From sequence record PQ511146.1: a stretch of DNA of 64,000 nucleotides. One strand, written 5' to 3'. The position numbers and the translations under genes are program-made. Below the pieces are notes generated by a model. That model was not told where the DNA came from, searched no databases, and worked only from the letters and a program-made list of their open reading frames with translations. Shown one piece after another: positions 24,844-53,524 of this stretch (position 1 is the stretch's first letter; every line of letters begins with the position of its first letter). This DNA is from Escherichia phage NHEP1.

Positions 24844-24927
24844 GGTGTTTTCCTTCCAGTTGTGAGCGGCACTATTGCCGCCCTACGTGATACATCTTAC
24901 ACTATCCGGCACATCATGCAAGCTATT

Positions 24928-25119: not shown

Positions 25120-25131
25120 TTTTATTACTCC

Positions 25132-25577: not shown

Positions 25578-25646
25578 TCTGTCATGTTGGCGGCAGCATT
25601 GCCGCCCTACGAAATACATTCTACCCGATTTGTAATTGTTGTCAAA

Positions 25647-25916
25647 CTAATTTTTCAAGCTCGACCAGTCAAAACACGGCGGGATCTCGTTAAAACTTGT
25701 GCCCTGTAAAGCACATAATTTTTTAGCAATAGCCGCCGTGACCTGGCGCTGTACGCGCGGATCTGCTACTGATTGGAGAAAGTAGGCGGCTTTATACGTG
25801 ATCATGCTTTCGCCTGTTTCCTTGCTAACATGATGCACTATTTTAGCCTTATCATCTTTTACCAGGGTGTAACCGGATTCGATGGCCTTGATTGCAACGT
25901 CCAATGATATTTTCAT
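25647..25916 (-). CDS. Hypothetical protein
   Basis: Track ORF 89 aa. Confidence 0.5.
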   Translation of the reverse strand: MKISLDVAIKAIESGYTLVKDDKAKIVHHVSKETGESMITYKAAYFLQSVADPRVQRQVTAAIAKKLCALQGTSFNEIPPCFDWSSLKN

Positions 25917-25963
25917 GATTTATCTCTTTATTGATGGCGGGGAATACTCCCCCGCCTTATTAA

Positions 25964-26134
25964 TTACTCTTCATCGTCGCCGTTATAGTATTCAATGCCG
26001 TTTTCATCGGTTACGGTAATATTAACGCCACCGATAGCAACACGATCACGGGCAAACGTCATGGCTTCATTTAAATCTTCAGACCAAAAAATATTGTGAC
26101 CTTTGCGCGATACGTAAAACATAGTCGGGATCAT
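25964..26134 (-). CDS. Small ORF (56 aa)
   Basis: Not in track; ATG preceded by promoter plus GC-clamp hairpin cassette; translation MIPTMFYVSRKGHNIFWSEDLNEAMTFARDRVAIGGVNITVTDENGIEYYNGDDEE. Confidence 0.4.
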   Translation of the reverse strand: MIPTMFYVSRKGHNIFWSEDLNEAMTFARDRVAIGGVNITVTDENGIEYYNGDDEE

Positions 26135-26216
26135 GATTTGTTTCTCTTTTGTTGTGAGCGGGAAACCATTTCCCGCCCTATGTGATACATCTTAAACTAA
26201 TTTAAAACGTTGTCAA
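26135..26216 (-). promoter_or_regulatory. Promoter (TTGACA-N16-TAAGAT) followed by GC-clamp 5'UTR stem-loop (PeSL-like cassette)
   Basis: Minus-strand hexamers map to plus 26211-26216 and 26189-26194; hairpin GAGCGGGAAACCATTTCCCGCCC at 26156-26178. Confidence 0.5.
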
Positions 26217-27672: not shown

Positions 27673-27716
27673 TACTCCTTTTTTGCACTGATTATTTTAA
27701 CAGGGTTTAAATTTAC

Positions 27717-27756
27717 TTTATTGATGGCCCTGGAATCAAGGCCATCTAAAAATAAA
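27717..27756. repeat. Conserved 40-bp hairpin cassette TTTATTGATGGCCCTG..CAAGGCCATCTAAAAATAAA (copy 1 of 3)
   Basis: Near-identical copies at 31423-31462 and 32045-32084. Confidence 0.6.
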
Positions 27757-27758
27757 TT

Positions 27759-27959
27759 TTACAGGCCTACAATCTCTTTAATTCGTTTTACTGCTGCCTC
27801 AGCGCCTTGAGGGTAAAAATTATGGTAACCAATCACGCGAGTGATACTAATCGCCGTTTGATGATCTTCATAATCACCTTTAAAGATTTCTTGACCGTCA
27901 ATCAGCACGGCAATTTTTTCTTCTTTTTTGAAGTTAATAACGCGGATATTGTTGCTCAT
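27759..27959 (-). CDS. Hypothetical protein
   Basis: Track ORF 66 aa; promoter, GGGGAGCAATCCCC hairpin and AAAGGAG RBS upstream. Confidence 0.5.
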   Translation of the reverse strand: MSNNIRVINFKKEEKIAVLIDGQEIFKGDYEDHQTAISITRVIGYHNFYPQGAEAAVKRIKEIVGL

Positions 27960-28434
27960 TTTGTTTCTCCTTTCTAGTCTTTGTGGTGGGGATTGCTCCC
28001 CGTTGATTGTTATTATCCATATTCCGGACCGGATTGCAACACCCTAGAAGAAAAATTTTTGAAAAAGTTAAGCCCCCAGGGATTGGGGGCCGTTATCAGT
28101 TACTTACAGCGATAAAGTACATCCCTACGCCTAACAATATTTCAAGAGCGATGATCTCAAGCCATACCGTAACACGGCGCACCTTATCGGTGCGGGGCTT
28201 ATCCTTGGGTGTCATCGTCTCCCCCTTTCCTCCTGTTAGCAGTTACGTGGTTTGCAATGGTCCCCAGGAGTATTATCACCACGCACATTACAAGAAAAAT
28301 TATCTCTGTCGTTGTTCGATCCATTGTTATAAAATTCCTTAAGATCAGGCCTGAAAATAAAGCTTTCGTTATTGAATCCATCCCGCCAGGCGGCTGGCTT
28401 CAAATCTTCACTAAATGGATTAATTAACGTGGCA

Positions 28435-28836
28435 TTATTTCGGCTGGCCCACATATTTTCTATTCCTCTTAAATAAGCGATCCGCCTCAGTTAAACAAAT
28501 CTCATGGGCGTGATCTCTGGTTTTAGCTTCATCGAAAACCTGTTGTGCAAGGCTGCAACGTAGGGAGACTGGAAGATCACTATAATAGGCGTTGACAAAC
28601 GTTTGAGCGTCGTACAGGTCTGAAAATACTTTACCCTTTCTATTATTCCCCTTGTCAACAATTGCAAGGATAACCAATACAATAGTTGCAACCACCCCCA
28701 GGAAAATAGATATAATAAACCATAAAAAGGCGGATCTTCCCATCTTGCCAGCGATCCAGGCGTTAAACAAGGCAACCAATACAGCCAAAATAATAAATTC
28801 CATTCTATGTACCTCTTTTACAGTTCTGATTAACAA
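28435..28836 (-). CDS. Membrane protein (two predicted TM segments)
   Basis: Hydrophobic stretches FIILAVLVALFNAWIAG and FLWFIISIFLGVVATIVLVILAIV. Confidence 0.5.
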   Translation of the reverse strand: MLIRTVKEVHRMEFIILAVLVALFNAWIAGKMGRSAFLWFIISIFLGVVATIVLVILAIVDKGNNRKGKVFSDLYDAQTFVNAYYSDLPVSLRCSLAQQVFDEAKTRDHAHEICLTEADRLFKRNRKYVGQPK

Positions 28837-28867
28837 TAAGGCGGCAAATATGCCGCCTGTTACCTGA

Positions 28868-29248
28868 TTAAAAATTATCGCCGTAAATCTTTCCGCTTTC
28901 TACCCATACCACCACGCGAGGCATACTATCCCACACGTCTTGTTTTAGATTGAGCGCGTGCAATTCTTCGGTGGTGCTCATACCAGGCACGGGCTGATTG
29001 TATACTGCAAAACGACCACCCGCATAATCATAGGCCAGGGTTAAATCACACTGGATCATCTTTTTGATCATGGCATTAAGCATGGCGTTAGCCGCATATT
29101 GATCACGTTTTAAAGGCAACTCTTTGATTAGTTTGCGATAGTTTTCGATATGGTCGCACACTGTTTCACGCGGAAGATCTTTCATATCTTCACGGAATGT
29201 GACCAGGTTAAACATAACGGTGTCAATAGCCTTGGTAGTGTTTTTCAT
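28868..29248 (-). CDS. Hypothetical protein
   Basis: Track ORF 126 aa. Confidence 0.5.
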   Translation of the reverse strand: MKNTTKAIDTVMFNLVTFREDMKDLPRETVCDHIENYRKLIKELPLKRDQYAANAMLNAMIKKMIQCDLTLAYDYAGGRFAVYNQPVPGMSTTEELHALNLKQDVWDSMPRVVVWVESGKIYGDNF

Positions 29249-29338
29249 GATGTTATCCTCTTTGTTTTGTGTTGGGGCAAACGTCTTGCCCCCTTGAGTT
29301 TTAATATAGCAGGTTTTTAGGTTATTGCAACACTTTAT

Positions 29339-29962
29339 TTATGAAAAAGTCATCTCACCATATTCATCGACATCAAACCGCCAATCATTGGCCTCGATAA
29401 GGCCGATCAGGTTTTCTGCGGTGAACTGTTCTAGATAGGCCTCCTCCAGGTCTACGTAAACCTTGCGGGATAGCTCCCGTGCCGTCTCGGTGATCAGTTC
29501 TTCCAGGTCTTCCACTTTGTTTTCTTGTTTGGCGGTCAGATCTAGCCAAGTGGTATCAATGTACCCGTTTACAGTGTTTTCATGGCTGTAATGGCTGTAC
29601 TTGTCGCGTTCAATACTGGCGGATAGTTCGCCATCGTGCATTGTGCCGAACAAGTGACGAATTGATCTGAACTTGGTCAGGGCCTTGACTTTACGCAAGA
29701 ATTTTTCTAAGTCTACATTTTCAGCACTGATCGATGCGCCATCGCCTTGACACCAAAAGCCGGACCAATGTACTTCGGTATCTTCAAGGCCGTACTCTGG
29801 AAAGATATATTCTTTGTAGTATTCAATTACATTTTCTGCAAAAAAGTCATCCCCGCTGCGTTCTTCTCTTTCGCGTACCATTTCAATGGCTTTTTCTTTT
29901 TGTTCGTCGGTCAGCACGTCGAAAGATAAATTGTAACCTGTGGTAATGTTAACGGTGGTCAT
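29339..29962 (-). CDS. Hypothetical protein
   Basis: Track ORF 207 aa; preceded by promoter and hairpin cassette. Confidence 0.55.
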   Translation of the reverse strand: MTTVNITTGYNLSFDVLTDEQKEKAIEMVREREERSGDDFFAENVIEYYKEYIFPEYGLEDTEVHWSGFWCQGDGASISAENVDLEKFLRKVKALTKFRSIRHLFGTMHDGELSASIERDKYSHYSHENTVNGYIDTTWLDLTAKQENKVEDLEELITETARELSRKVYVDLEEAYLEQFTAENLIGLIEANDWRFDVDEYGEMTFS

Positions 29963-30048
29963 GATATTTTCTCCTGTTTTCTTTGTTAGTGGCGGGAAGT
30001 TTTCCCGCCTGCGTGTTTAATTATACTTATTGGGATTTACTTGTCAAC
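29963..30048 (-). promoter_or_regulatory. Promoter (TTGACA-N16-TATAAT) followed by 5'UTR stem-loop GGCGGGAAGTTTTCCCGCC (PeSL-like cassette)
   Basis: Minus-strand hexamers map to plus 30042-30047 and 30020-30025; hairpin at 29991-30009. Confidence 0.55.
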
Positions 30049-30297
30049 ACTATTTTTTAAATTATTGTGGCGCAAAATGTTTAAAATCTCCTCAACGTCA
30101 TCAACACGGCGGCAATTTTTAAACGCTACCAATTGCCCCATGATTTTAATCACTGGGCGGCCTTGCCAGTGCCCCTGAAGAAAGCGCGCCTTGACTTTAT
30201 CGGTGGAACTATCACGCCACCAAATAGCCTTGTTGTTGCAGTAGTAAAAATTATTCAGGATAACATCAACTTTATCAAAATTTTTTAATTTACGCAT
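30037..30297 (-). CDS. Hypothetical protein
   Basis: Track ORF 86 aa. Confidence 0.5.
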   Translation of the reverse strand: MRKLKNFDKVDVILNNFYYCNNKAIWWRDSSTDKVKARFLQGHWQGRPVIKIMGQLVAFKNCRRVDDVEEILNILRHNNLKNSVDK

Positions 30298-30516
30298 GGC
30301 GTTTACTCCTTTCTCTCTTTGATGTGGTTAGTATAGCTAACCTGTTGACGATGTCAATGATATTTTTAACGCCATAAAACGGCCCTGGGCGATGTTTTCA
30401 GGTTAAAGGGGGGCGATTGCATAGGTGGGGGCCTTTTTGGCACTTACAGGGCCAACCAGGGGCGCTATTCGTAGGATAGAAATAAAAAGCCCCGCACAAT
30501 GGCGGGGCGTTGGTTG

Positions 30517-30738
30517 TTATTTGTCTTTATGGCGGTATCGTTCTGCCTGTCGTTCACGTTCCAAAAGTAGGCAGGGCAATTTACGATCATAATGATTCCG
30601 CCAGATCTTCCCAAACCTTTTTGGCTTATTCAGTTTATTGTTACGCTGTCGGCGTTCTGGCAGCTCTTCGGAATCATGAGGGCGCTTTACAATTTTCTCG
30701 AAATTAATTTTCATATATTCCCCCCTTGCTAACTTCAA
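30517..30738 (-). CDS. Small basic hypothetical protein
   Basis: Track ORF 73 aa, Arg/Lys-rich; chosen over the overlapping plus-strand ORF for strand consistency. Confidence 0.4.
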   Translation of the reverse strand: MKLARGEYMKINFEKIVKRPHDSEELPERRQRNNKLNKPKRFGKIWRNHYDRKLPCLLLERERQAERYRHKDK

Positions 30739-31075
30739 TATTGGCCTGAATGGCCCGGATACGGCGCTTTATAACTTCCTGATCTGTGTGGTCGTATCCC
30801 CAAAAGTCCACAATTTTTGCGCCCCCAGCCTCCAGGCGGTATAGTGTTTCCTGCATTTTGTAAGCCGGGATCGGTCGCGGTGTTACTTGGTCACCTTCTT
30901 TATTTTTATACTTTATAATATAATCTTCGTTATCGTTGAATTCCCAAAATGGATATTCTGCAAGGGCGGTACTTCCTCTTTCCTTTTTATCCTGGATCTT
31001 ATTTACAATTAAAGCCGTAGCAATAGCGCCAATAATAAAACTAGCCCCGCTGATCATGTTACTTTCTCCTTTCAT
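30704..31075 (-). CDS. Hypothetical protein with N-terminal TM segment
   Basis: Track ORF 123 aa. Confidence 0.5.
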   Translation of the reverse strand: MKGESNMISGASFIIGAIATALIVNKIQDKKERGSTALAEYPFWEFNDNEDYIIKYKNKEGDQVTPRPIPAYKMQETLYRLEAGGAKIVDFWGYDHTDQEVIKRRIRAIQANIEVSKGGIYEN

Positions 31076-31131
31076 GGTGTTAATAAATTATCTTTATAGA
31101 TGGCCCTGCAACCAGGACCACCGAAAAATAA

Positions 31132-31377
31132 CTATTTCACAATGCCTACAAAACAGATCCCGCCTTCACCTATGTAAGCAATATCGGTCACTTTGTAGTC
31201 GGTTAAGATCTGTTTATTCAGATCATTAATAAAATCGGTCATTGCGTTGGTGTAGTTGTCTTCTGTATCTAAGGCATAATCCCAGGTGTAAACCTTTTTA
31301 CGTCCGAAGCCTTTTACCATGATACGGGCGCTTTTGGTGTTAGTAGGGGCATAATACTTGGTGATTAGTGCTGCCAT
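31132..31377 (-). CDS. Hypothetical protein
   Basis: Track ORF 81 aa; GAGGAG RBS. Confidence 0.5.
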   Translation of the reverse strand: MAALITKYYAPTNTKSARIMVKGFGRKKVYTWDYALDTEDNYTNAMTDFINDLNKQILTDYKVTDIAYIGEGGICFVGIVK

Positions 31378-31422
31378 GGTTTTAACTCCTCATTAGTTCA
31401 GTGTTAACAGTGTAAAGTTTAC

Positions 31423-31462
31423 TTTATTGATGGCCCTGAAGTCAAGGCCATCTAAAAATAAA
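31423..31462. repeat. Conserved 40-bp hairpin cassette (copy 2) carrying a minus-strand TTGACT -35 in its loop
   Basis: Minus strand reads TTGACT-N18-TAAACT upstream of gene 31132..31377. Confidence 0.55.
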
Positions 31463-31464
31463 TT

Positions 31465-31806
31465 TTACTCGTTTTCTTCCAGCTTTGAAAGCTCTTCTTT
31501 CACTTCTTCAAGCTCTGTCTGCAATTCTTGGTATTCTTCGTCGTCCTCAATATCCAGGCTGTCGATGTAGTCGCTAAATCCGCAGCGGTAAGCGATAGGA
31601 TCTAACTCCTTGAGGATACGCGACGGAAGAAAAGAAATGCTTCCGATCATAATTTCGCCGTAGATCTCGTCTAACCATTCATCATAGTTTTCGTCGTACT
31701 TGTCCTCGTCGATTTCAAAGTTATCGATCTTGTTCTCAAGGTCTGCGATCTGTTTTTTCAGCGCGGCGATCTGCATAGCTTTTTCTGCGGCGGTCATAGT
31801 AGTCAT
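31465..31806 (-). CDS. Acidic coiled-coil-like hypothetical protein
   Basis: Track ORF 113 aa. Confidence 0.5.
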   Translation of the reverse strand: MTTMTAAEKAMQIAALKKQIADLENKIDNFEIDEDKYDENYDEWLDEIYGEIMIGSISFLPSRILKELDPIAYRCGFSDYIDSLDIEDDEEYQELQTELEEVKEELSKLEENE

Positions 31807-32044
31807 GGTGTTTTCTCCTTTTGTGTATTCTGGGAAGTTTTCCCGTTTACGTGTTTAAGTATATCAATCTAAGTTAGCTTGTCAATTAAAAATTTAAGAA
31901 AAATTTTGCAAAACTGTTAGCGCTACTCATTAACATTTGCGCCAGGATGTAACCGACAACGCAAACGATAATAGTTACCTTTGTGTATTGGCGTGTAGTG
32001 CTCATCTTAAAGCCCCCTTTTTCGCTTAGTTGAGACTAGTTTAC

Positions 32045-32084
32045 TTTATTGATGGCCCTGGAGTCAAGGCCATCTAAAAATAAA
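32045..32084. repeat. Conserved 40-bp hairpin cassette (copy 3)
   Basis: Same sequence family as 27717 and 31423. Confidence 0.55.
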
Positions 32085-32085
32085 C

Positions 32086-32490
32086 TTAATAAGTTTTCAG
32101 TACTTTACCGTCCAACCTGTCAAGCTGGATCTCAATAGCTGCAGAAAACCTATTGTACACCACGTCGCCCATGGAATCCAACCAGTCTATGACGTTATAC
32201 ACCTGCTCTTTGTTCTTGCAGGTCCGGATCCGTTTCATGATGTAAGCCGGATCAATATTGGTACTTTCGTTGGTGTTCCCCTGTACCTGATTTGCCGTAT
32301 TAGTTACATCTTTAATGGCCTTTACCACCACCTGGAAGGGCTTTAAGGTGCCTTTTGCGTTCATCTCACGCACTTTTGCGGCGCGGTTGTTATAGGTTAC
32401 ACAACGGCGGCAAATGTTCACTAAGTGCATGTCAATAATTTTTTCATCGTTTGCCAGTTCGTTCATGATGCGGCGTACGTTCTTATTCAT
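32086..32490 (-). CDS. Hypothetical protein
   Basis: Track ORF 134 aa. Confidence 0.5.
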   Translation of the reverse strand: MNKNVRRIMNELANDEKIIDMHLVNICRRCVTYNNRAAKVREMNAKGTLKPFQVVVKAIKDVTNTANQVQGNTNESTNIDPAYIMKRIRTCKNKEQVYNVIDWLDSMGDVVYNRFSAAIEIQLDRLDGKVLKTY

Positions 32491-42136: not shown

Positions 42137-42507
42137 TGATCTGCCTCCTTCTTGTTGAGCCGGAACACTGCAATAATAGCATTTCCAAGATGCAGTGTCA
42201 AATCATTTCCCAGATACCATAACATTCCACGGTCATCTTTAATGAAAGGGTAACAATCCGGTGCCTTCCAGACATTATACACTTTGCCGACCTGAAAGAA
42301 ATCAGGCCCTGTTGGAATTTTAGTACCGGGCCATACTTGGGACACCTGAACGCATTCTACCTGCATAATGACAGGGATAGTCATGGAGGTAAATGTTTTT
42401 GTTGGTTCTACTACCATAAAAGTCTCCTCTCTGTCTAACAACACTTCCGTGTGTTGATAGTTTACATTAGTGACAATCACCCCAGTTACGACCGCACAAG
42501 TATTCAC
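42133..42507 (-). CDS. Small protein, DDxGxxW(F/Y)L paralog family
   Basis: KDDRGMLWYLGNDLTLHLG. Confidence 0.5.
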   Translation of the reverse strand: MNTCAVVTGVIVTNVNYQHTEVLLDREETFMVVEPTKTFTSMTIPVIMQVECVQVSQVWPGTKIPTGPDFFQVGKVYNVWKAPDCYPFIKDDRGMLWYLGNDLTLHLGNAIIAVFRLNKKEADQ

Positions 42508-45500
42508 CTGTGATCTGGAACGGAACGCCCATCATTTTAGAAGCCTGCCAGAAGCAATGCACCACCATTTCGCCCACAGGGCTCCAGATAAGCTCAAGCT
42601 TTCCGTCATCATTCAAGATAGGATCGTATACCGTATTTCCATCCTTGTCAACCACTTCGTTTCCGTCCTCATCTTTGCGTGCCTTTTTGTACTTATGACC
42701 GTCGAACACATGAAGTTTAGCCTCTTGTTGGGCTTTAAATGTTTCCAGCTCTTCAATTGTGTCGAAGGTGTATACGGTTTTATACTTAGGTGTGTCAGGC
42801 ACTTGAAGCTGATATTCGTCATGGTAATAGATAATACGACGAACACCCTCATCATACCATCCACGCTTCACCATCTGGTGGTGCATGAGGATTCCGACCA
42901 AGTCGCACAACGATGCACCGCCATTTTGCTGATATGCATTAAGCAAAGAGTGTTTAGAGCGGGTCCAAATGGCATGCCCGTCAAAAGAGTAGATAAATTT
43001 CTTACCTGTTGCTTCCCAGAATTTCTCCAGATCCTCTTTACGCCCCTTAAGGCCCGGGTTGGCATCCCAGAGAGCATCAATTACTCTCTGTCCAAGTTCT
43101 GGAGAGATATCTAGCATATCTGCAACTTTATCTTTTTGTGCCCCGTACATAACCCCATATGTGACAGGCTTACCATCGTTACGGGAAATCTCCTTGCCTG
43201 CTACAGAAGAGTAAGCTTTGGCGTTATTACAGTTACCGCACACTGCCACTTTACCATTCCTTCTCACAATGATTGCTCCAGAAGGGACGGTAACGCAATA
43301 AACCAAAGAACCGCTCACCTCGACAGACTCTTTAGATAGTGTCAGCAACCCTGCTCTCTGTTTGCTACCAATCGTGATTCTGTGCTGTACGGAACGACCT
43401 TTTTTGTGAATCGCCACCGTATTATTCCGTAAACCACACTGAGTAGCCAGCGCAGACACAACCTCTACAGATTTCTTCCTGCACCCGGCCTGAGAGTAGT
43501 AGGCAACTTTTCCACCTTCGGAAGATACCCACCCGTCCCAGTTAGATAAAGAAGCTATAAACAGGTTTTTAGATTCTTTATCAAGGTCCATCAGGTTGTA
43601 GGTGAAATCCTTATTGCTGTCCAAAAACTCAAATACCCAGGACGGAACGTGGAATTGGAACCTTCTCGCCAGTAAGCCCCCTTTTGTGGTTTTCCCGCTC
43701 TGCTCTACATAACTAAGGCTTAGAGCAGAAAAAGTATCTAAAAGCGTTGCAACTTTTCTGCCCTTCCCGACCTGAATCCTGCACACGATGCTGCCGTCCT
43801 TATTTGTATGCAAGTGCCCATCATCGTGAATAGCAATAAGCAAATTAACCTGGGCAGGAGATAAGGTTGTATTCCCATAAAACTCTGCCGCATGGATAAA
43901 CCTTCTTCCTGAATTAGACCCTTTACCTGCTTTCAGGTCTTTTGCCAAATCTTCAAACAATTTATTGCTTCTGTGATCCACGGTCAGCATCCTGTGTTGA
44001 TCTGTAACCATAAAATCCACACTGCTGTTGTGGAAATGATACATATCCCCACAATAACTACGCTTAACGTAATTTAATGGAGTAACAAGGTTCATCGACG
44101 AGGTGTTGTGATCGTACTGGAACACCTGTGTTCCCGGATCAAGATCTTCAAACCTCACCCACCCTTTCTCCGTGAGAATTTGTGTATCTCCTGAATAACA
44201 GTGTGCATCGCCGTTACTTACAACATCATAATACAGACCGTTGTCAAACTCAAAGGCACCCCAGGCCCCGATGAGCTGCTCTAAGTTGGACCCGTCAATA
44301 CCGATCTCAAAGTATCCTGGAGGAACACCCCACAGACTACGCATCTCTTTACCCATAACCACTTTAGGAGATGGTTTAGGCATGTTTGCACAAATACTAT
44401 GTTTCTGTCTGGAAGTGTTTGTTAATCCAGAACTTTTAGCAGGAAGCTTGTGGTCAATCTTCAAACGTGGATGATTAAGAAGACCAGTATCAACCTTATC
44501 TTCCTTGATTGGATCAAGGACCGATCTGCGGTTTCGCAATGATAACCACAAAACGATATCTTTAGCCATCTCTCCGTTCAATTTTTCAAGATTCGGGCAC
44601 AGGTGTCCAAACGTATCTTTCAGTTGCGGAGAAGTAATAAGCGCTCTGGCTTTTCTACGTATCTTCCCAAACACTTCCTTTTTAATCCTTTCTGAGTTAG
44701 GGAAGCTTCGGAACTTATGCACAGTTGTCTGGAACTTGGCATCAGTTTTGTTCCAGAAGTTGATAATTAGATCACAATACTCTGACTCCAAAAGCTCGTC
44801 CATATATGCATATACTCGTGCATCAACATCTGCATCAGGTAAAGCTTTCTTCTTGCTGTCTTTAGTTACATCTTTAGTTCTCCACATTGTTGGGAGCCAA
44901 CCAGCACTGATCAGGTATCGCTTGATGTCGTCCTGATTGCTGATTTTCATAGGTATCTTGCAGTCAGGCATTCGCTTCTGCTGTAGGTCACTTATCGCCT
45001 GATCCATCAGCTCTTTAGGTAAAGGGTGTGGTGTAGAAGTTCCTTTGATATACCCCCTCAAGAAATCAGCCATCTTATCGGGGTCTTTACAGCCCATCTC
45101 TTCACACCATTTTATCCCCATCTTACTTACATCCCCTGTGGAGGTAAATGCTCGCTTAGGAGGAGCTTTGAACTCTAAAGCACTCATGTCCACAGGGTAG
45201 CCAAGCTTGTCTTTTAACCATTTCCAACCATTATTGGAGATTGTCCCATCTTGGTTAAACGGCTTTTCAGGGAACTTAGGCCGCTGAGACATTGATAACT
45301 CTTTTAAAGGAAGTTGTGGTTCAACACGATCAGCGATCTCTTTCATCCACGCATCGCAACGGTCACGTAAAGCAATAGCCCCATCTATGTCGAAATACAC
45401 CCCCTGTCGAGCCTGCAGCTCCATCAGGAAGTGCTGTAACATGCCTCGGCGTAATGCGTTCTTCCAGGTGATCTTCTTGAAGCCTTTCGGCTTCTCTTTG

Positions 45501-46213
45501 GCAGGATCGTACATAAAGTTCTGCATGTCAGATTTGCCGTAGAATACACCTTTTGATTCCGCTACCAACTCCTTCCAGAGCAACTCCTGGATGATAACGT
45601 CCTCGAACACACGATCCACATACTTCCACAGTGGAAGCTCACGCCAGTCATCGATTTGAACTTTCTGGTTACCAAGGGCATAGCCCCATGCCATAAGGCC
45701 ATGAGGCCCAACAGGCTGCATTTTCTTGGTAACTGGATTGAATACTGCGTCCGGACAACCTTTTGGCAAAGGGCGGTCAGGCCACAAGATTCGGCTCATC
45801 GCTAACGTATCAAACAGATTAACCGGGTGGTCGTTGATAGTCCCCATGCATTTAGGATCACGGAACATATCAAAATGAATACCGGATAATCTTTCCATCA
45901 GCATAAAGTCGTAACTGTAGCAGTTATGACAGTTCAAAGCCGTAGGTGACCAGTCTGAATTGCCTGTAAGCCAACCTTCCAACTCTGAAAAATCTGCTAT
46001 GCGAGCCTCAAAATCTGTATAAAGGGTCTTCTTTGCCAGAATGAAGTTCTTAGCTTTCTCCACATCCTCTTCAGAGTAGTGTGTGCGGTCATTTAGAGGA
46101 AGGAACAGCATAAAACGGTTCTTATTCAGCTCTTTAAACAAACCGCAGTGATAATAAAGATCTGGGTCTTCCAGCAGGCCAGAGGCCTCAAAATCGAACG
46201 ACCACATGCTCAT
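42467..46213 (-). CDS. DNA polymerase, family A (T7 gp5-like), intein-containing
   Basis: N-terminal exonuclease motif FDFEASGL and YHCG; motif A-like GIDGSNLEQ...FDNG; motif B-like NAK...YGVMYGA; motif C-like YYHDEYQ; AAGGAG RBS. Confidence 0.85.
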   Translation of the reverse strand: MSMWSFDFEASGLLEDPDLYYHCGLFKELNKNRFMLFLPLNDRTHYSEEDVEKAKNFILAKKTLYTDFEARIADFSELEGWLTGNSDWSPTALNCHNCYSYDFMLMERLSGIHFDMFRDPKCMGTINDHPVNLFDTLAMSRILWPDRPLPKGCPDAVFNPVTKKMQPVGPHGLMAWGYALGNQKVQIDDWRELPLWKYVDRVFEDVIIQELLWKELVAESKGVFYGKSDMQNFMYDPAKEKPKGFKKITWKNALRRGMLQHFLMELQARQGVYFDIDGAIALRDRCDAWMKEIADRVEPQLPLKELSMSQRPKFPEKPFNQDGTISNNGWKWLKDKLGYPVDMSALEFKAPPKRAFTSTGDVSKMGIKWCEEMGCKDPDKMADFLRGYIKGTSTPHPLPKELMDQAISDLQQKRMPDCKIPMKISNQDDIKRYLISAGWLPTMWRTKDVTKDSKKKALPDADVDARVYAYMDELLESEYCDLIINFWNKTDAKFQTTVHKFRSFPNSERIKKEVFGKIRRKARALITSPQLKDTFGHLCPNLEKLNGEMAKDIVLWLSLRNRRSVLDPIKEDKVDTGLLNHPRLKIDHKLPAKSSGLTNTSRQKHSICANMPKPSPKVVMGKEMRSLWGVPPGYFEIGIDGSNLEQLIGAWGAFEFDNGLYYDVVSNGDAHCYSGDTQILTEKGWVRFEDLDPGTQVFQYDHNTSSMNLVTPLNYVKRSYCGDMYHFHNSSVDFMVTDQHRMLTVDHRSNKLFEDLAKDLKAGKGSNSGRRFIHAAEFYGNTTLSPAQVNLLIAIHDDGHLHTNKDGSIVCRIQVGKGRKVATLLDTFSALSLSYVEQSGKTTKGGLLARRFQFHVPSWVFEFLDSNKDFTYNLMDLDKESKNLFIASLSNWDGWVSSEGGKVAYYSQAGCRKKSVEVVSALATQCGLRNNTVAIHKKGRSVQHRITIGSKQRAGLLTLSKESVEVSGSLVYCVTVPSGAIIVRRNGKVAVCGNCNNAKAYSSVAGKEISRNDGKPVTYGVMYGAQKDKVADMLDISPELGQRVIDALWDANPGLKGRKEDLEKFWEATGKKFIYSFDGHAIWTRSKHSLLNAYQQNGGASLCDLVGILMHHQMVKRGWYDEGVRRIIYYHDEYQLQVPDTPKYKTVYTFDTIEELETFKAQQEAKLHVFDGHKYKKARKDEDGNEVVDKDGNTVYDPILNDDGKLELIWSPVGEMVVHCFWQASKMMGVPFQITGEYLCGRNWGDCH
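43232..44200 (-). mobile_element. Intein (about 323 aa) with LAGLIDADG-like endonuclease motifs inside the polymerase gene
   Basis: Begins CYSGDTQIL right after GDAH; T..H block; LIAIHDDGHL and FIASLSNWDGW motifs; ends ...VAVCGN before +1 Cys; extein boundaries by alignment-by-eye. Confidence 0.75.
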
Positions 46214-46271: not shown

Positions 46272-48350
46272 TTAAAAAGGTGTTTCGTCGTCTTCAAAAC
46301 CAGGAACGTGGTTAGAGGACGGATCATCATACTGAAGGTCTTCCTGTGTGTCAACAGGGTTAACAGCAGGGGTTATAACCTTATCAGCCACAACCTTGCC
46401 CACAGGTGTTTCTACAACTGCATGCTCCTGATCCTCAAACATAGCCTGAGGTCTCCAAACAACCTCCCCACCTTCCCCGTCTGTAAACATCTGCATTTCT
46501 TTGTCCCAGTACCAGTTGCTGGCATCATAGAACTTGCCTGTGTGGGGATCCATAACTAGAGTGTCCGCAATACCTAAGGTTTTTGCTGGGCGGTTTTTAA
46601 GACCTACCAGTCGGACACGTCCACGGGAACGATCCACCATCTCCTCTGCCTCTACCCCGACAACCACCCAGCTAAGTTGCTCCAATCCGGCACTACCGCG
46701 AAGGTTCTCTTTTCGTACAGGGTACCAGAAAGGTAACGGATTTCCATCCTTATCCTTCGGAGGTACAATCTCTGTGCGCTTCAGGTGAGCAATCACCAAG
46801 ATAAACACATTAAACTGCTTACAGAACGCGGCTAGTTGAGTCATAGCCATGTCAAGCTCTTTACGCTCATCCTTAACATTAAGCCCTGAAATCACCATAG
46901 ACAGGTGATCCAGCACAATGTAACGGCAGTGATACAGGCACACCATTTGTTTAAGCTTAGTGATCAGCTCATCTACAGGGATGGAGCCGAAATGCTTGAA
47001 CACTTTGATTTTTCCGGCCTTGGCCCAAGATTGATGAATCTCAGCGTGCTCCTGATCGGTCAGGAACTGACTGGGGTCTTCAACAAACTCTTTAACATCA
47101 AACCCCAGCTGGTTAGCGTACAGAGAGTTGATTGCTTCCTCAGGATCCTCTTCAAGGTGAATCAGGCACAGGCGATCATCCTCTTCATAATCATCAGCTT
47201 TAGGGCATGTTGGATCCATCAAGTATCTTGCAATGCAATGTTCCAGCTTCTTGGCTACAGTTGTTTTACCACCGCCAGACGGGCCTGTCAGCATCATCAA
47301 GGTGCCTTTGTGGAGTCCTTTCAGCATCTTCTGCAGTTTAGGGAACTCTGCACTGATATCTACGCCATTGGAAGTCTTCTTACGAAGAGATTCAATGGAG
47401 AAGTCTTCTAAATCAGATACAGCATCAGGCACATATTTGACTGGGTGACGGAACATGTTGACAATATCTTCCAGCTTTTTAGCCTTCAGCATGTCACGAA
47501 TATCTTTTACACCATCAGGGTCGTTTACCTCACCCGGGTATTCCACGTGGTAAACGTTATCAGCCATCAAAAATGCTGCGATATTATGTGTGGCTTCAAC
47601 ACCTTTAATAACGTGTTTTTGCTTCTCTACCTCGTTAGCTGCATCGTTGTCCATTGCAAGGACCACTGTTCCGTAGCTACGGATAAATTTCTCATTGTTC
47701 GCAAAAGTGTCTACGGCGTTTGCACACCCACAGTTAATTCCAACAAAAGGCAGGCATGGTTTTCCTGCCAGATCCCCGCCGTTGATAACTGCATCAATCC
47801 CATCCTGGACTTCTTTAGCCCACTGCTTCACCTTCGCTGGGGCTTTAGCATTGGTGAGAATTCCTTTTACTTGTATCTGATATGCAGCCTGCCACGCTGC
47901 AATAACATCTCCTTCTCCCTCACAAACGTTAATCTGCTTACGGTTGTTGGAGGATGCACACAGCTTTTGACCAAACATCTGGGAGTTGGCCTTTACTATG
48001 CCAACAACCGAGAAATGGCCCCTTTGCTCTTTAGGGATTGTCCAGTCACGCTTTTTAAAGCCAGATAGATTACCGTAGCGGTCATAATACGGAAAGTAGG
48101 TGGCAGTAACAGTTACACCATCCTCTTGGGATAGCGATGATCGTACACCAAAATATTGTGCAGCCATCAGTCCAATATTTTGTTGTGGAACAGGGACAAT
48201 TTTAGTGTTTTCTAAAACAGTCTCCACAGTTTCAACTTCTTTTTCATCACGATAGTCTCGTTTCACACTCCCCCCACTTTTATACTTAGTTGCTTTCGGG
48301 TTTGGCTCACCGAAACGGTTGTATGCAGATGCCATGAATTTACTGCCCAT
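46272..48350 (-). CDS. DNA primase-helicase (TOPRIM plus DnaB-family helicase, T7 gp4-like)
   Basis: TOPRIM-like VCEGEGD and LAMDNDAAN; Walker A GPSGGGKT; Walker B-like FILVIAHL; AAGGAG RBS. Confidence 0.8.
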   Translation of the reverse strand: MGSKFMASAYNRFGEPNPKATKYKSGGSVKRDYRDEKEVETVETVLENTKIVPVPQQNIGLMAAQYFGVRSSLSQEDGVTVTATYFPYYDRYGNLSGFKKRDWTIPKEQRGHFSVVGIVKANSQMFGQKLCASSNNRKQINVCEGEGDVIAAWQAAYQIQVKGILTNAKAPAKVKQWAKEVQDGIDAVINGGDLAGKPCLPFVGINCGCANAVDTFANNEKFIRSYGTVVLAMDNDAANEVEKQKHVIKGVEATHNIAAFLMADNVYHVEYPGEVNDPDGVKDIRDMLKAKKLEDIVNMFRHPVKYVPDAVSDLEDFSIESLRKKTSNGVDISAEFPKLQKMLKGLHKGTLMMLTGPSGGGKTTVAKKLEHCIARYLMDPTCPKADDYEEDDRLCLIHLEEDPEEAINSLYANQLGFDVKEFVEDPSQFLTDQEHAEIHQSWAKAGKIKVFKHFGSIPVDELITKLKQMVCLYHCRYIVLDHLSMVISGLNVKDERKELDMAMTQLAAFCKQFNVFILVIAHLKRTEIVPPKDKDGNPLPFWYPVRKENLRGSAGLEQLSWVVVGVEAEEMVDRSRGRVRLVGLKNRPAKTLGIADTLVMDPHTGKFYDASNWYWDKEMQMFTDGEGGEVVWRPQAMFEDQEHAVVETPVGKVVADKVITPAVNPVDTQEDLQYDDPSSNHVPGFEDDETPF

Positions 48351-49134
48351 TAATTCTTCTCCTTACTGCAGGCTCGTTTGCTAAGAATACAGCTCTTGCC
48401 CAGCCACGTGGTGTAAGGCTTCGAATCATCTTCGTCCTTGCACTCTTTCCACCTAGCTTAGCGTGTTGCATGGAATAACCACTAACCGCATCAACTATTT
48501 GCGGGACAGGTTTTGTGGCGGGGATTATAAATCCATTGCCTATCCAACCGCAAGTTATTTTTGGGTAGGCATCACGTGGAGCTATAAATTCAGGAAACCA
48601 TGGGTTTACATCATCCTCTGGTAAATACCCACCATAATCCGAAGGATGAAAACGGTAATCAGGTTTTCGCCACAGTGTTGACATAACTCCTACAGGGTTC
48701 TCTACATGCCACGGGCAATCGTAAATCTCTCCCAACTCTTCTGCAACCCGAGCATCTTTCACAGCATTAATTTGGATCAGAGGATCCTTAGCCAGCTTTT
48801 TCTTAAAGTGTGCAGCTCCGGATACTGCTAAATGCGTGCACGGAGGAAATGCAAGAATAAAGTCTGGAGCCGGATACATGCAAAAAGTTTCTTGAGGGAA
48901 CCATGGATCAATCCAATAATCCACATAGTGAATGTTAGGATGATCGGTTATCACCTCTACATAACTACCGTGGTCAGCACCTTCTGCATTAAAGCACAGG
49001 CACAGGTACCCAGCTTTTGCCCAGTCAATAACTGCACCACCGGACCCGTCAAATAGACTCCACACGACACCTTTGTGGTAGTGTTCTTTGTAGATAAATT
49101 TCAATTTGCTGTCTCCTAATGCAAAAAGCCCCAC
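48340..49134 (-). CDS. Putative C5-cytosine DNA methyltransferase-like protein (start codon uncertain)
   Basis: Motifs LFDGSGGA (I-like), FPPCTHLAVSGA (PC motif), HVENPVG (ENV-like) in canonical order; track start is GTG inside a terminator hairpin, TTG at 49104 with GGAGA RBS is an alternative. Confidence 0.4.
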   Translation of the reverse strand: MGLFALGDSKLKFIYKEHYHKGVVWSLFDGSGGAVIDWAKAGYLCLCFNAEGADHGSYVEVITDHPNIHYVDYWIDPWFPQETFCMYPAPDFILAFPPCTHLAVSGAAHFKKKLAKDPLIQINAVKDARVAEELGEIYDCPWHVENPVGVMSTLWRKPDYRFHPSDYGGYLPEDDVNPWFPEFIAPRDAYPKITCGWIGNGFIIPATKPVPQIVDAVSGYSMQHAKLGGKSARTKMIRSLTPRGWARAVFLANEPAVRRRINGQ

Positions 49135-49150
49135 CCTTTCGGGCAGGGCA
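49129..49150 (-). terminator. Terminator hairpin identical to the one at 38012-38033
   Basis: GCCCCACCCTTTCGGGCAGGGC on plus strand. Confidence 0.45.
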
Positions 49151-49155
49151 TAGTG

Positions 49156-49638
49156 TTAAACCCGGATACCTATTGTATACTCGGTGGATACCAATGTCAA
49201 ATCTAAATTTAAAATTTCTTGCATCTCATAGTATGCGTCCAGGGTGAGATACATTTCACCATCCTTTTCTACATACTTGTCAAGGTGTTTTAGGCACTTT
49301 GGATAGCTATCAAGGGCAGCCTTTAGGCACTCAAACTCCGTGCTGTTGATGAATCCTTCCATCTTGGCTACCCGTTCCGGAGTAACGATAGCACTGTAGT
49401 GAGATTTAGCTTCCTGAATGCAATGGGTCCAAGCATCAACTTTCTCTTCGAAAAGTCCGAAGAACTTCTTCTTGGTGAGCTTCAGATTCTTTAAGTGCTT
49501 AAGAACTCGGTTGCCGATTACAGACACATCACGAAACTTAAGGATCACTTTGTCAATATCCTCGCGGCCTATTTTCACAAAGCAGGCCTCACACATTTCA
49601 GGAGAGGCATAGCCTACTTTCCACATAAAATCTGACAT
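49156..49638 (-). CDS. Hypothetical protein
   Basis: Track ORF 160 aa. Confidence 0.5.
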   Translation of the reverse strand: MSDFMWKVGYASPEMCEACFVKIGREDIDKVILKFRDVSVIGNRVLKHLKNLKLTKKKFFGLFEEKVDAWTHCIQEAKSHYSAIVTPERVAKMEGFINSTEFECLKAALDSYPKCLKHLDKYVEKDGEMYLTLDAYYEMQEILNLDLTLVSTEYTIGIRV

Positions 49639-49650
49639 AGCACTCCCTCC

Positions 49651-50049
49651 TTATTCCTGAAAAGCAACGATATCGTATGAGCTTGCAGACGAGCCGGGGG
49701 AAGAGTGACTCCAGTCTAGATCATCAGAGAAGTCAGCATACTGTGCACCACTCCGCAGTTTATATTTTACCCACTTACCTGGTGCAGGGTTTTCACCACC
49801 CTCCCATACTTCCCAACCTTCTGGCAAGCCGTTATCTTGGGAGTAACCATCAACTTCACTAGTGATCTCTGGGTTTGGCACCAAGATCCATGCAGGCTCT
49901 TCCTTCTTAGCAAGTGTCCACACAATGTATGTGTCTGAGCAGGAGCATGTCAGTAAAGTATACCCACTGTTCAGAACTTCTGCAAGCTCTTTTTCAGCAT
50001 CTTCTAATTTGGTTAGGTGGTATTGGATAATCTTCACATCTGTAATCAT
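49651..50049 (-). CDS. Hypothetical protein
   Basis: Track ORF 132 aa. Confidence 0.5.
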   Translation of the reverse strand: MITDVKIIQYHLTKLEDAEKELAEVLNSGYTLLTCSCSDTYIVWTLAKKEEPAWILVPNPEITSEVDGYSQDNGLPEGWEVWEGGENPAPGKWVKYKLRSGAQYADFSDDLDWSHSSPGSSASSYDIVAFQE

Positions 50050-50410: not shown

Positions 50411-51754
50411 TTACTCTAAATCTTCTTCTGAGTCAAGCTTATCTTTCACAGCTAAATTAGGGGCAAGTTTGTAATAGCGAAAGCCCCCACCGCCTTGCCA
50501 GTTTACAGATTTAGAAATACCACTTTGATCTTCACCATCGATCACTTTTTGCAAGCGTGGAATAATATGGGTATGACAATGATCTCCTAGCTCAACCGAG
50601 ATCCAACGTCTTTTCATCTTGTGAGCTACAGCAGCAGTAGTTCCAGAACCACCAAATGAATCCAATACTAAATCTCCTTCTCGCGTACACATTTCTAAAA
50701 TCCGCTTCAAAAGCGCTTCAGGTTTTTTTCCATTTTTGAAACTAACGCCCCCTTCATTTGCTATTCCATTCCAACTAATGTCAGTCCAAACATCAGTTAT
50801 TAGTTCAGCAGGCTGCATCTCACCGTCAATTTCCAAAAGCCTGTTGGAATAAAAGACCATTTGCCTACCATTTGCGATATAAAAGCCTTCGACATCCTCA
50901 TTTGGATGTACATAAACCTTATCCCTATCTTTCTTTGACTTCTCGATAGTTTCTTTTCTCTTTATTTTGGCACCACCGCCAATTGCAACGGATTGAAATA
51001 CACGTTCTGCATTATCAATTGCAAATTGTGCTAATTCATCATCAAATGTATCAGGCAGTTTTTTCTTGGCTTCTTTTGTATCTTTATAGCCATTGGCCTT
51101 TGCAAACGCATCGGCAATACCGCACCACGTCCAACTTTTATAATGGTCATCTGGGTTTAATAGATATTTGTTATATCCCGTATCATACTCTTTAGGTATA
51201 TAGATTTTGTTAAGTGGTTTCTTGGTACGATCTTTTGCATATACAAGCAAAAAGTTTGCTGTGGAGAAAACTGTAGTTCCTGTTGCCTTAAAGCCTGAAG
51301 GGCAATTTGTAGTCATCGATATGGTATTTAACTGATTTGCACGACCAAAAATCTCGTCCATCAAGACTTTTAAATAAGCCATTTCGCAGTCATCTAAGTG
51401 AACGAATATCACTCCATCATCGCTTAGCAGATTACGAATTATTTCTAATCTGTCCCGCATTAAGCCCAGCCAAAGGGAGTGCTCCAGGCTATCATCGTAG
51501 TGCTCAAAATCCCTTCCGGTATTGAATGGCGGGTCTATGTAAACACACTTCACTTTGCCTGCATACTCTTGCTCTAGTGCCTTCAATGCCAGTAAGTTAT
51601 CTCCAAAAATCAGTTTATTATCAAAAATATCGTTTTCGGTCACCTTTTTACTGGCGTGATAAGACTTGCTCGAATCTTCTAACAAAATGTGAGGCTCTAG
51701 CTTTTTGCGCTCGTTCTTACCTATCCAGGTAAGTTCTAATTTGGTTTTACTCAT
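50411..51754 (-). CDS. DNA methyltransferase, beta-class N6-adenine/N4-cytosine type
   Basis: Catalytic DPPF motif (YIDPPFN) preceding SAM-binding FGGSGTT motif. Confidence 0.8.
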   Translation of the reverse strand: MSKTKLELTWIGKNERKKLEPHILLEDSSKSYHASKKVTENDIFDNKLIFGDNLLALKALEQEYAGKVKCVYIDPPFNTGRDFEHYDDSLEHSLWLGLMRDRLEIIRNLLSDDGVIFVHLDDCEMAYLKVLMDEIFGRANQLNTISMTTNCPSGFKATGTTVFSTANFLLVYAKDRTKKPLNKIYIPKEYDTGYNKYLLNPDDHYKSWTWCGIADAFAKANGYKDTKEAKKKLPDTFDDELAQFAIDNAERVFQSVAIGGGAKIKRKETIEKSKKDRDKVYVHPNEDVEGFYIANGRQMVFYSNRLLEIDGEMQPAELITDVWTDISWNGIANEGGVSFKNGKKPEALLKRILEMCTREGDLVLDSFGGSGTTAAVAHKMKRRWISVELGDHCHTHIIPRLQKVIDGEDQSGISKSVNWQGGGGFRYYKLAPNLAVKDKLDSEEDLE

Positions 51755-51815: not shown

Positions 51816-52157
51816 CTACTCAAGGTCTTCAGAGTCAAGCTCAAAAAGAATCAAACTGTGCATGCCTGCAGAGAGATCAACACACCCTGCAACAATAAGG
51901 GTTTGATAGTAAGGTTCAGCACCCTCAATATCTTCGTTAAAATCCACAACAAGGTAGTCACCTTTGTTAAAGGTGTATTTGTCCGATGTAAACGCAAAAC
52001 CTGCCCAGTCCCCTACTGCAGGATCTTTATCAGTCACCTTTGTTAGCAGTAGATCTTTTTCACGAGATCTTTTAGTAAAATCGTGAATCACAACATCCTT
52101 CTCTTCAGGAGTCGGATTGCCACACACGTAGTTAACGATATTTCTCCACAAACTCAT
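51816..52157 (-). CDS. Hypothetical protein
   Basis: Track ORF 113 aa. Confidence 0.5.
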   Translation of the reverse strand: MSLWRNIVNYVCGNPTPEEKDVVIHDFTKRSREKDLLLTKVTDKDPAVGDWAGFAFTSDKYTFNKGDYLVVDFNEDIEGAEPYYQTLIVAGCVDLSAGMHSLILFELDSEDLE

Positions 52158-53524
52158 ACGTCCCCCTTTTCTGCTCTAGTTTCAAAATCTTTCCTGACTT
52201 TCTCGTCTAAGCCAGGGAAAGTTGTATTATAAAACTCTACGACTCTCGGGTCAACAATAATATCCACCTCTCTTAATGGACGCAACAAGTTTATTCCTTG
52301 TATCGTCTTAACCCGACTCAAGGCAACATACGTCATTCCGGGAGAGAAAGCTCCGTTCTTTCCGAGGTCTAGGTTGTAACAATCTAACGTAAGTCCTTGA
52401 CTTTTATGCGATGTTACTGCGTACCCAGATTTCAAAGGAAGTTGCTCATAAGACCCGATCACAACCCTCTCTATGAACTTCTCCATCTTCCTTTCGGCAA
52501 TATTGTACCTCTGGGAAGGTTTGTACTCGTTATTCTCCCACAATCTCGGCTCAATTTCAACCTGTGTCCCGTCTTCCAGCTCAACCACCACAGACTTGGT
52601 CTTGAATTTTACCACTGTGGCGCGTGTCCCGTTGACATAGTACGGAACTTTATGTGTCGGGTCAACATCGTTTGAGGTTATCATAACCTTCATCCCTATC
52701 TTCAGCCTCATTTCCTGCTCCACAGGCAGTGTGGAGGGGAACTTACCTTTCATTTTACCAATGTAGGTCTTCTCTGGGGCCTTGATGGCATCATAGAAAC
52801 GTCTGTTCACCTCCTCTGCTTGCTTATTGGTGGCACAGATGGTCAAGGCATCTGTTGGGACACCACCATGATAGCAACGAGTGTTAAGCTCTGCTACAAC
52901 CTCTTTTATGCGACGACCTTCACGAACACAGTTCAACATTGTGGCGAAGCGAACAGATTCCTGACGGAACTGGTCTACTAATGCTATATTGTGAAGATTA
53001 AGATCCTCCCAAGATTTTGTATAGCAACACAGGTCTGTGTGGTAGAAGTTGAAGTAGGCTTCTTTCTCCATAGAAGAGACAACTGGGGGTGCTTGGTAGA
53101 AATCTCCAAACAATAGCACCTGAATGCCTCCGAAAGGTTTGTCATTTTTCCGAAGAAAGCGGAGTTTTCTATCCATCTCTATGAACTTGTCAGCACGGAT
53201 CATAGAGATTTCATCGATAATTAGGATGGTAAATGCCTTGCTTTTCAGAGGCTTTGCTGTTTTTGCCCTTATTGCTGTCCAGTCTGACTCCATGCTCACA
53301 CCTGCGGCAAGATCGAAAGTTCGGTGCGCTGTTGCTCCATTAACGTTTAAAGCGGCTACCCCTGTCGGGGCAACCGTTATGCAAGAGTCTCCATACATGG
53401 ACTGGATCATGTTGATAAGATATGTCTTCCCGGTTCCACCGGGTCCACTTACGAAGACATTCTCACCACTCATGATTGCAACAAGGGCAGCATCTGTGCC
53501 TACATCGTACTGCCCTTTTTCCAT
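52154..53524 (-). CDS. SF1 DNA helicase, Dda/RecD-like
   Basis: Walker A GPGGTGKT; IIDEISM Walker B-like; HKSQGLT motif. Confidence 0.85.
   Translation of the reverse strand: MEKGQYDVGTDAALVAIMSGENVFVSGPGGTGKTYLINMIQSMYGDSCITVAPTGVAALNVNGATAHRTFDLAAGVSMESDWTAIRAKTAKPLKSKAFTILIIDEISMIRADKFIEMDRKLRFLRKNDKPFGGIQVLLFGDFYQAPPVVSSMEKEAYFNFYHTDLCCYTKSWEDLNLHNIALVDQFRQESVRFATMLNCVREGRRIKEVVAELNTRCYHGGVPTDALTICATNKQAEEVNRRFYDAIKAPEKTYIGKMKGKFPSTLPVEQEMRLKIGMKVMITSNDVDPTHKVPYYVNGTRATVVKFKTKSVVVELEDGTQVEIEPRLWENNEYKPSQRYNIAERKMEKFIERVVIGSYEQLPLKSGYAVTSHKSQGLTLDCYNLDLGKNGAFSPGMTYVALSRVKTIQGINLLRPLREVDIIVDPRVVEFYNTTFPGLDEKVRKDFETRAEKGDV

Follow-up and report, generated by a model that had tools for sequence, protein, structure and literature searches.

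A compact DNA cytosine-C5 methyltransferase-like gene of the PHROG 757 family in the replication module of an rV5-like Escherichia phage

A stretch of 64,000 nucleotides (nt) from Escherichia phage NHEP1 (PQ511146.1), referred to here as the window, carries on its minus strand an open reading frame (ORF) whose product resembles DNA cytosine-C5 methyltransferases. The source of the window is a Vequintavirus of E. coli of the rV5/FV3 type; over 6 kb around the ORF, Escherichia phage S127 BCL3 shares 97.9% identity, and more than 100 rV5/FV3-like members of the genus Vequintavirus share 91–98%. The ORF proves to be a genuine gene and an ordinary feature of an rV5-like coliphage, and its annotation is already public, as the rV5 RefSeq record, the BASEL genomes and many other entries label it a DNA or cytosine methyltransferase. 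The gene is flanked by a terminator-like hairpin and the gene of a primase-helicase (Table 1), which is where an earlier interpretation made from the letters alone (the sequence-only reading) had placed it within the replisome module. The primase-helicase ATG, at 48350, lies so close that the overlap with the stop codon of the compact methyltransferase gene amounts to 11 nt, and this overlap suggests that translation of the two proteins may be coupled. An Rfam scan of 47800..50000 returned no matches.

Table 1. Features of the compact methyltransferase gene and of the surrounding replication module (positions in the window; residues counted from the TTG start).
Feature	Position	Strand	Remarks
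Compact C5-methyltransferase-like coding sequence	48340..49104	minus	254 amino acids, TTG start, TAA stop; orthologue of rV5 gp226
Motif I, FDGSG	49039..49053	minus	residues 18–22; part of the cofactor-binding loop, DNMT3-like 'SLFDG' form
Motif IV, PPC	48838..48846	minus	residues 87–89; catalytic cysteine Cys89
Motif VI, ENP	48694..48702	minus	residues 135–137; catalytic glutamate Glu135
Variable loop	48460..48519	minus	residues 196–215; at the expected place of the target-recognition domain, flanks strongly conserved
Motif IX-like segment, MIRSLTPR	48405..48428	minus	residues 226–233; directly followed by the C-terminal helix
Shine-Dalgarno sequence, AGGAG	49113..49117	minus	8 nt upstream of TTG; read directly from the sequence
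Terminator-like hairpin with T-run	49128..49149	minus	terminator scan; 9-bp stem with 7 G-C, loop GAAA; holds the rejected GTG
Sigma-70-type promoter-like site, TTGACA-17-TACAAT	49172..49200	minus	agrees with the consensus at 11 of 12 positions; lies within the last part of the upstream ORF
PIF1-like helicase	52154..53524	minus	first in minus-strand order of the replication module
ORF of unknown function	51816..52157	minus	113 amino acids; after the PIF1-like helicase
N6/N4 methyltransferase	50411..51754	minus	447 amino acids; PF01555
Three small ORFs of unknown function	between the PF01555 gene and the compact-methyltransferase ORF	minus	
DnaB-like primase-helicase	46272..48350	minus	next after the compact-methyltransferase ORF
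Family A DNA polymerase	42467..46213	minus	after the primase-helicase

Counted from a GTG, the frame extends over 48340..49134 and encodes 264 amino acids. The sequence-only reading had hesitated between this GTG and a TTG at 49104, and the uncertainty is resolved, on sequence evidence, in favour of the TTG, because the AGGAG lies 8 nt upstream of it, the annotated frame of rV5 gp226 is the identical 765 nt, the starts of two relatives agree and the GTG falls inside the hairpin. The start codon is corrected accordingly, and the protein is taken to have 254 amino acids. Downstream of the TTG, two differences separate the gene from that of rV5, and both are synonymous third-position changes. In one relative, a metagenomic Vequintavirus-like contig with 78% protein identity (L007), the promoter, the hairpin and a GGAGG are kept and an ATG follows a few codons past the homologous position; in the other, with 79% protein identity, AGGAGG is followed by a GTG at the homologous codon and the hairpin is absent. 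The GTG at 49134 was rejected as a start, being located in the 3' arm of the hairpin, which is itself kept in one relative, and having no ribosome-binding site. The product is unusually compact; the sequence-only reading had put it at about 260 residues.

The hairpin is also formed in an RNA fold prediction, and in the 78%-identity relative it is kept with one G-U to G-C change. The promoter-like site corresponds to the annotated promoter P231 of rV5, and a similar site (CTTGACA...TATGAT) is present in the same relative. The site lies upstream, not downstream, of the hairpin, and a transcript from it would run through the hairpin about 15–40 nt from its 5' end and only then into the Shine-Dalgarno sequence and the TTG. 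The order of promoter, hairpin and Shine-Dalgarno sequence is the same in the 78%-identity relative (L007 2900..3003). This arrangement may serve attenuation or provide a stabilising 5' stem-loop. A 231-nt query around the hairpin has a second genomic match in most related phages (209 places in 117 records) and is present as a single copy in this window; in phage BP9, the match is limited to the stretch 49097..49159, that is, the hairpin plus the Shine-Dalgarno sequence.

The protein matches PHROG 757 ('DNA methyltransferase') over its full length with an E-value (E) of 6.4e-87, residues 2–252 falling on profile positions 5–227 of 247, and a match of this strength lies well outside what chance would give. 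Its homologues comprise 4185 clusters at 90% identity and 1989 representatives at 50% identity, nearly all of 210–260 amino acids, and a tblastn search found the family in 1505 phage records, mostly of Escherichia, Klebsiella, Salmonella and Shigella phages and some of Vibrio and Arthrobacter phages. Judged by sequence, membership in the C5-methyltransferase family PF00145 is transitive, via siblings. Ten of 22 close homologues match PF00145 at E<1 (best E 1.3e-6), and three of them, which are 55–57% identical to the protein, exceed the gathering score of 22 bits (P0067, 28.5 bits; P0068, 25.4 bits; P0053, 24.7 bits), the matches covering only PF00145 positions 4–94 with motifs I–IV. In a profile–profile comparison (hhalign) with nine canonical C5 enzymes, namely M.HhaI (a sequence identical to PDB 10mh_A) and eight phage enzymes, residues 11–143 align with M.HhaI 11–127 at E 2.2e-5, with motifs I, IV and VI in register; the comparison with the single M.HhaI sequence gives E 0.04. 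An unverified sequence of the DNMT3A catalytic domain aligns over motifs I–IV only, at E 4.7e-5. Further, the AlphaFold model (predicted local distance difference test, pLDDT, 86.3; predicted template modelling score, pTM, 0.88) has the three-dimensional fold of the C5 methyltransferases, with DNMT3A/B as the top Foldseek matches and phage neighbours that are named cytosine methylases. The compact domain also occurs fused to other domains: in P0266 (563 amino acids) it is joined to a Dam D12 adenine methyltransferase domain, and in BFVD A0A6J5SE15 it lies inside a 1397-amino-acid phage protein named Helicase/UvrB N-terminal. Either fusion is compatible with DNA as the substrate.

Conservation was counted in an alignment of 84 diverse family members, with a mean column identity of 26%, and in the 22 close homologues. 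The catalytic cysteine of motif IV is present in 84 of 84 members, and Pro88-Cys89 aligns with Pro80-Cys81 of M.HhaI. The catalytic glutamate of motif VI is equally invariant (84/84), with Asn136 in 80 and Pro137 in 83 of the 84, and the motif aligns with Glu119-Asn120-Val121 of M.HhaI; the replacement of Val by Pro in this motif is thus common to 83 of 84 members. In motif I, residues F18-D-G-S-G22 align with F18-A-G-L-G22 of M.HhaI ('DLFAG') and with 'SLFDG' of DNMT3A (hhalign). Among the close homologues, G20 and S21 are invariant and G22 is kept in 20 of 22, and the form across the wider family is F-D-x-(T/S)-G. Phe86, Pro87, Thr90, Gly96, Asn136, Pro137, Arg228, Ser229, Pro232 and Gly234 each recur in 90% or more of the members, and SLFD.(T/S)G, FPPCTDLAVSG and ENP stand out as the hallmark forms of the family. 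The FDGSGGA, PPC(T) and ENP(V) motifs that the sequence-only reading had picked out in the order I, IV, VI are therefore present, and its identification of the ORF as C5-methyltransferase-like, now backed by the fold, motifs I, IV and VI and the PF00145 matches of siblings, is right at its core.

The C-terminal half is less conventional. Residues 153–195 are modelled with confidence, largely without regular secondary structure, and equal the catalytic motifs in conservation. Candidates for a motif VIII region are Arg146 (74/84) and a cluster of Arg177, Asp178, Tyr180 and Lys182 just before the strand 184–189; this strand with F192..P195 was aligned with the motif VIII strand and FQFP of M.HhaI ('CF...FQFP') at a non-significant E of 0.23. 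Conservation within the chain is lowest in the following loop (entropy 3.06 bits), which ranges from 13 to 33 residues in length across the 84 members and has the lowest pLDDT of the model (64–79). We infer a recognition role for this loop, which is the only plausible specificity element. The motif IX-like segment, in which Arg228 is kept in 82 and Pro232 in 80 of the 84 members, resembles 'KTRKLHPR' of M.HhaI in a weak local hhalign match over 8 columns, with E 0.042 when the C-terminal halves are compared and 0.0031 in a narrower comparison. The C-terminal stretch reads K-L-G-G-K-S...I-R-S-L-T-P-R-G-(F/W)-A-x-A-V and continues into a long helix (233–251 in the model), the chain ending 21 residues beyond the motif IX-like segment. 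To the eye, 'G234-F/W-A-x-A-V', which opens this helix, could be a stand-in for motif X. The sequence patterns suggest a deletion of the recognition domain and of the hinge that separates motif IX from motif X, with the terminal helix taking the place of the motif X helix.

In comparison with known systems, the protein shows no material difference from rV5 gp226 and other PHROG 757 members. The same gene is found in BASEL Vequintaviruses, T1-like Drexlerviridae, Klebsiella Webervirus-like phages and RB49-like Krischvirus phages, where it is annotated, by computation, as 'DNA methyltransferase' or 'Dcm-like C5 cytosine methyltransferase'; in B9-1, FFH2 and other Vequintavirus records, the protein is about 97–99% identical, of equal length and encoded at the same place upstream of the primase-helicase. 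The classical PF00145 enzymes M.HhaI, M.HaeIII and Dcm differ more. They are about 75–220 residues longer, have ENV and PCQ where the protein has ENP and PPCT, and carry QxRxR and GN(A/S)V signatures as well as a recognition domain, whereas here neither signature is detectable and the recognition domain is represented by the loop of 13–33 residues. The hallmark forms of the family are closer to those of the eukaryotic de novo enzymes DNMT3A and DNMT3B (SLFDG, SPCNDLS) than to the bacterial consensus, and because of this resemblance DNMT3 comes first in sequence as well as fold searches. The resemblance may stem in part from the shared lack of a large recognition domain. Identity to the DNMT3A/DNMT3B catalytic domains is just 13–16%, the sequence alignment covers motifs I–IV only, and DNMT3 enzymes, unlike the phage protein, have clear motifs VIII, IX and X and work in oligomers with regulatory domains. 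The phage DNA cytosine C5-carboxymethyltransferase SpCmoX (PDB 8yf3; PMC12783734) is longer, has SPPC where the protein has FPPC, uses an arginine at residue 350 to bind its cofactor and is encoded beside cmoA and an amide ligase, partners that are not found near the gene in the window.

The gene occupies diverse neighbourhoods. It precedes the primase-helicase in rV5-like phages; a T1-like BASEL phage carries it close to a helicase, in a group of small early genes, and an RB49-like phage also has it among early genes. It follows another methylase in an Arthrobacter phage, is found between Dam and NinG in a lambdoid prophage and is close to a helicase-like gene in T1-like contigs filed under Salmonella. 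No endonuclease is present in any of these neighbourhoods, no conserved partner adjoins the gene in the rV5-like, T1-like and RB49-like phages, the Arthrobacter phage or the lambdoid prophage, and the enzyme is therefore an orphan. The adjacent cognate endonuclease that marks a type II restriction-modification system is likewise missing here and in rV5, where the neighbours are the primase-helicase and proteins of unknown function.

These observations make it likely that the gene encodes a stand-alone (orphan) DNA cytosine-C5 methyltransferase of the compact phage family PHROG 757, dependent on S-adenosylmethionine (SAM). Its catalytic activity, its action on DNA, the cofactor, the timing of its production and its role are all put forward on the strength of homology and context. 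By analogy with M.HhaI and the DNMT3 enzymes, the target cytosine would be flipped out of the helix, Cys89 would attack C6 while Glu135 would hold and protonate N3/N4, the methyl group would pass from the cofactor to C5 and beta-elimination would then free the enzyme. The usual target-recognition domain of 80–100 residues would have shrunk to the variable loop, and such a reduced loop between strongly conserved flanks points to recognition of a sequence that is probably short, possibly aided by dimerisation as in DNMT3. The position in the replication module and the overlap of the stop codon with the primase-helicase start argue for production during phage DNA replication, so that the enzyme is probably made while the phage DNA replicates and marks that DNA. 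Its most likely role would be protection against cytosine-sensitive restriction enzymes of some hosts, and C5 methylation would carry the cost of exposure to type IV systems.

Two further methyltransferases are encoded in the window, and both of the enzymes that the sequence-only reading had listed beside the compact one are real methyltransferases. The 447-amino-acid protein matches PF01555 (N6_N4_Mtase) at E 5e-44, and a 177-amino-acid NPPY enzyme encoded on the plus strand at 8570..9103, described earlier as Dam-like, matches PHROG 799 at E 5e-67; BASEL records label the orthologue of the latter 'putative N6 adenine methyltransferase'. In the GATC-specific N6-adenine methyltransferase of the Vequintavirus Bas51, D69G, D79G and T83P abolish the triggering of retrons Asa1 and Squ1, and T83P also removes GATC methylation from the phage (PMC12548924). 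The 177-amino-acid protein carries D69, D79 and T83, and the 447-amino-acid protein has Lys, Thr and Phe at these positions, so that it is the shorter protein which corresponds to the Bas51 enzyme. Of the three methyltransferases of the window, one is thus experimentally active in a close relative. The Bas51 methylation data were called for N6-methyladenine only and are therefore silent on 5-methylcytosine (PMC12548924).

Several observations weigh against an active cytosine methyltransferase. In a Pfam search, the protein has no PF00145 match even at E 10, its sole match being a chance one to SCO4226; an NCBIfam search gave no match, and phmmer against PDB sequences gave a chance match only. 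A profile of the close family found DNMT3B as the best of the PDB sequences at a non-significant E of about 0.4, and a broader profile of 84 sequences performed weaker still, again without significance. The C5-methyltransferase hidden Markov model (HMM) search proposed along with the sequence-only reading hence fails when made directly with Pfam or NCBIfam and succeeds through PHROGs, sibling sequences, profile–profile comparison and structure. Motif VIII (QxRxR) is not detectable by sequence in the protein, motif X (GN[AS]V) did not align in C-terminal local profile comparisons, and the motif IX-like segment lacks the Glu and the GFPD part of R.LTPRE..RLQGFPD. The acidic residue of motif II is expected to bind the ribose of the cofactor. 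The wider family has Asp at this position in 80 of 84 members, and the subfamily of rV5-like, T1-like and Klebsiella phage proteins to which the protein belongs departs from it with Asn39 (48988..48990, at the end of strand 2), invariant in 22 of 22. In the literature, no paper was found with 5-methylcytosine in rV5-like or T1-like virion DNA and no methylome or biochemical data were found for any family member, and the rV5 genome paper does not discuss methylation. Moreover, the Vequintavirinae were "exceptionally susceptible" to the restriction-modification systems tested in BASEL (PMC8594841), and in the same work the methyltransferase genes of T1-like phages (Drexlerviridae) did not relate to restriction resistance in any simple way. 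The proposal of a heavy investment in evading restriction, which had been built on the three modification enzymes, finds no support in these results, although protection against enzymes other than those in the BASEL tests is possible.

The departures in motifs II and X bear on whether an active enzyme with this fold performs another chemistry, such as transfer of a carboxymethyl group from host-CmoA carboxy-SAM in the manner of CmoX, or has as its substrate single-stranded DNA or RNA, in the way that DNMT2 modifies tRNA. The cofactor choice of CmoX hinges on one motif X residue, the equivalent of Asn304 in M.HhaI (PMC12783734), which is not locatable here; with motif X unreadable and carboxy-SAM produced by E. 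coli, carboxymethyl transfer is conceivable, and Asn39 in place of the usual acidic residue is in line with a non-standard chemistry. In addition, the segment 153–195, where a variable recognition domain would be expected, is as conserved as the catalytic motifs, which would suit a common, non-variable substrate. We nevertheless consider this alternative unlikely, as the hallmark of CmoX is SPPC with Arg350 (PMC12783734) and the family here has FPPC, the residue after the conserved Gly234 is, by eye, Phe or Trp and not Arg or Lys, no cmoA, amide-ligase or ParB-like partner lies near the gene in the neighbourhoods examined, and the Dam-domain fusion points to DNA as the substrate. There is an equally doubtful reading in which the family is a minimal C5-methyltransferase lineage that lacks canonical motif X and a recognition domain, with the DNMT3 catalytic domains as its nearest kin by sequence and structure and the conserved segment 153–195 imposing one common target, very short or not sequence-specific; in its extreme version, the cofactor or substrate would be non-standard. 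If this version were true, rV5-like, T1-like and many Klebsiella phages would carry an overlooked cytosine mark.

The unrecognisable motifs VIII and X, the minimal recognition domain and the failure of the BASEL tests to show any protection of Vequintavirinae would also be compatible with a degenerate relic that has ceased to modify DNA and that works in the replication module by binding DNA or as a regulator, or else as a decoy to host defences. This is improbable: Cys89 and Glu135 are strictly conserved and Asn136, Pro137, Arg228 and Gly234 nearly invariant against so low a mean column identity, a pattern of active enzymes rather than of an inactive relic, and the family spans about 2000 clusters at 50% identity with uniform length and has a compact, confident model. 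The size of the protein and its motifs I to IX without X recall the M.AquI alpha subunit, which has 248 amino acids. The gene could then encode a split-methyltransferase subunit whose partner supplies the missing C-terminal motifs, or the methylase half of a restriction-modification system. The neighbouring genes change completely from one phage group to the next and include neither an endonuclease nor a small partner that is conserved; both versions were rejected on these gene neighbourhoods and retain hardly any probability.

Palindrome statistics in the window give no clear signal about the target of the putative orphan methyltransferase. GATC occurs at expectation (337 observed, 342 expected), and CCWGG at 0.84–0.89 of expectation. 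The most under-represented 4-bp palindromes are CTAG (0.54 of expectation) and GTAC (0.67), and TGGCCA, CGATCG, GGGCCC, GGCGCC and CCGCGG, each expected 3–9 times, are absent from the window, with weak z-scores.

Pfam and NCBIfam miss a very common phage family, and annotation pipelines based on HMMs only will call its members hypothetical. Putative enzymes of about 230 amino acids that depart from the canonical ten-motif layout are encoded in more than 1500 sequenced phages, including therapy candidates. Knowledge of the recognition sequence would shed light on the host range of rV5-like, T1-like and Klebsiella phages and on how sensitive they are to restriction of types II and IV.

A few other features were observed along the way. 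The DNA polymerase ORF encodes 1248 amino acids and is covered to at least 80% in just 6 of 118 related phages, with about 1 kb (27%) of the gene missing from most of the relatives listed. The extra in-frame segment begins CYSGDTQILTEKGW and ends ...VAVCGN/C, and from its sequence it looks like an intein; a Pfam search of the ORF found no intein or homing-endonuclease domain. About 16–18 records among MG065635-MG065690 are named 'Campylobacter phage', with C. jejuni as host, and are 92–98% identical to E. coli Vequintaviruses across these genes, which suggests that they may be mislabelled or contaminating phages in the deposit. Finally, families of repeated intergenic elements occur at 27710..32098 and 24861..26200 of the window. 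One consists of a 61-nt unit in four copies, with a GGCC...GGCC hairpin and a T/A-rich tail, and the second of a 45-nt unit in three copies, with a GC hairpin followed by 'CCCTACGTGATACATCTTA'; these elements are probably terminator/promoter cassettes.

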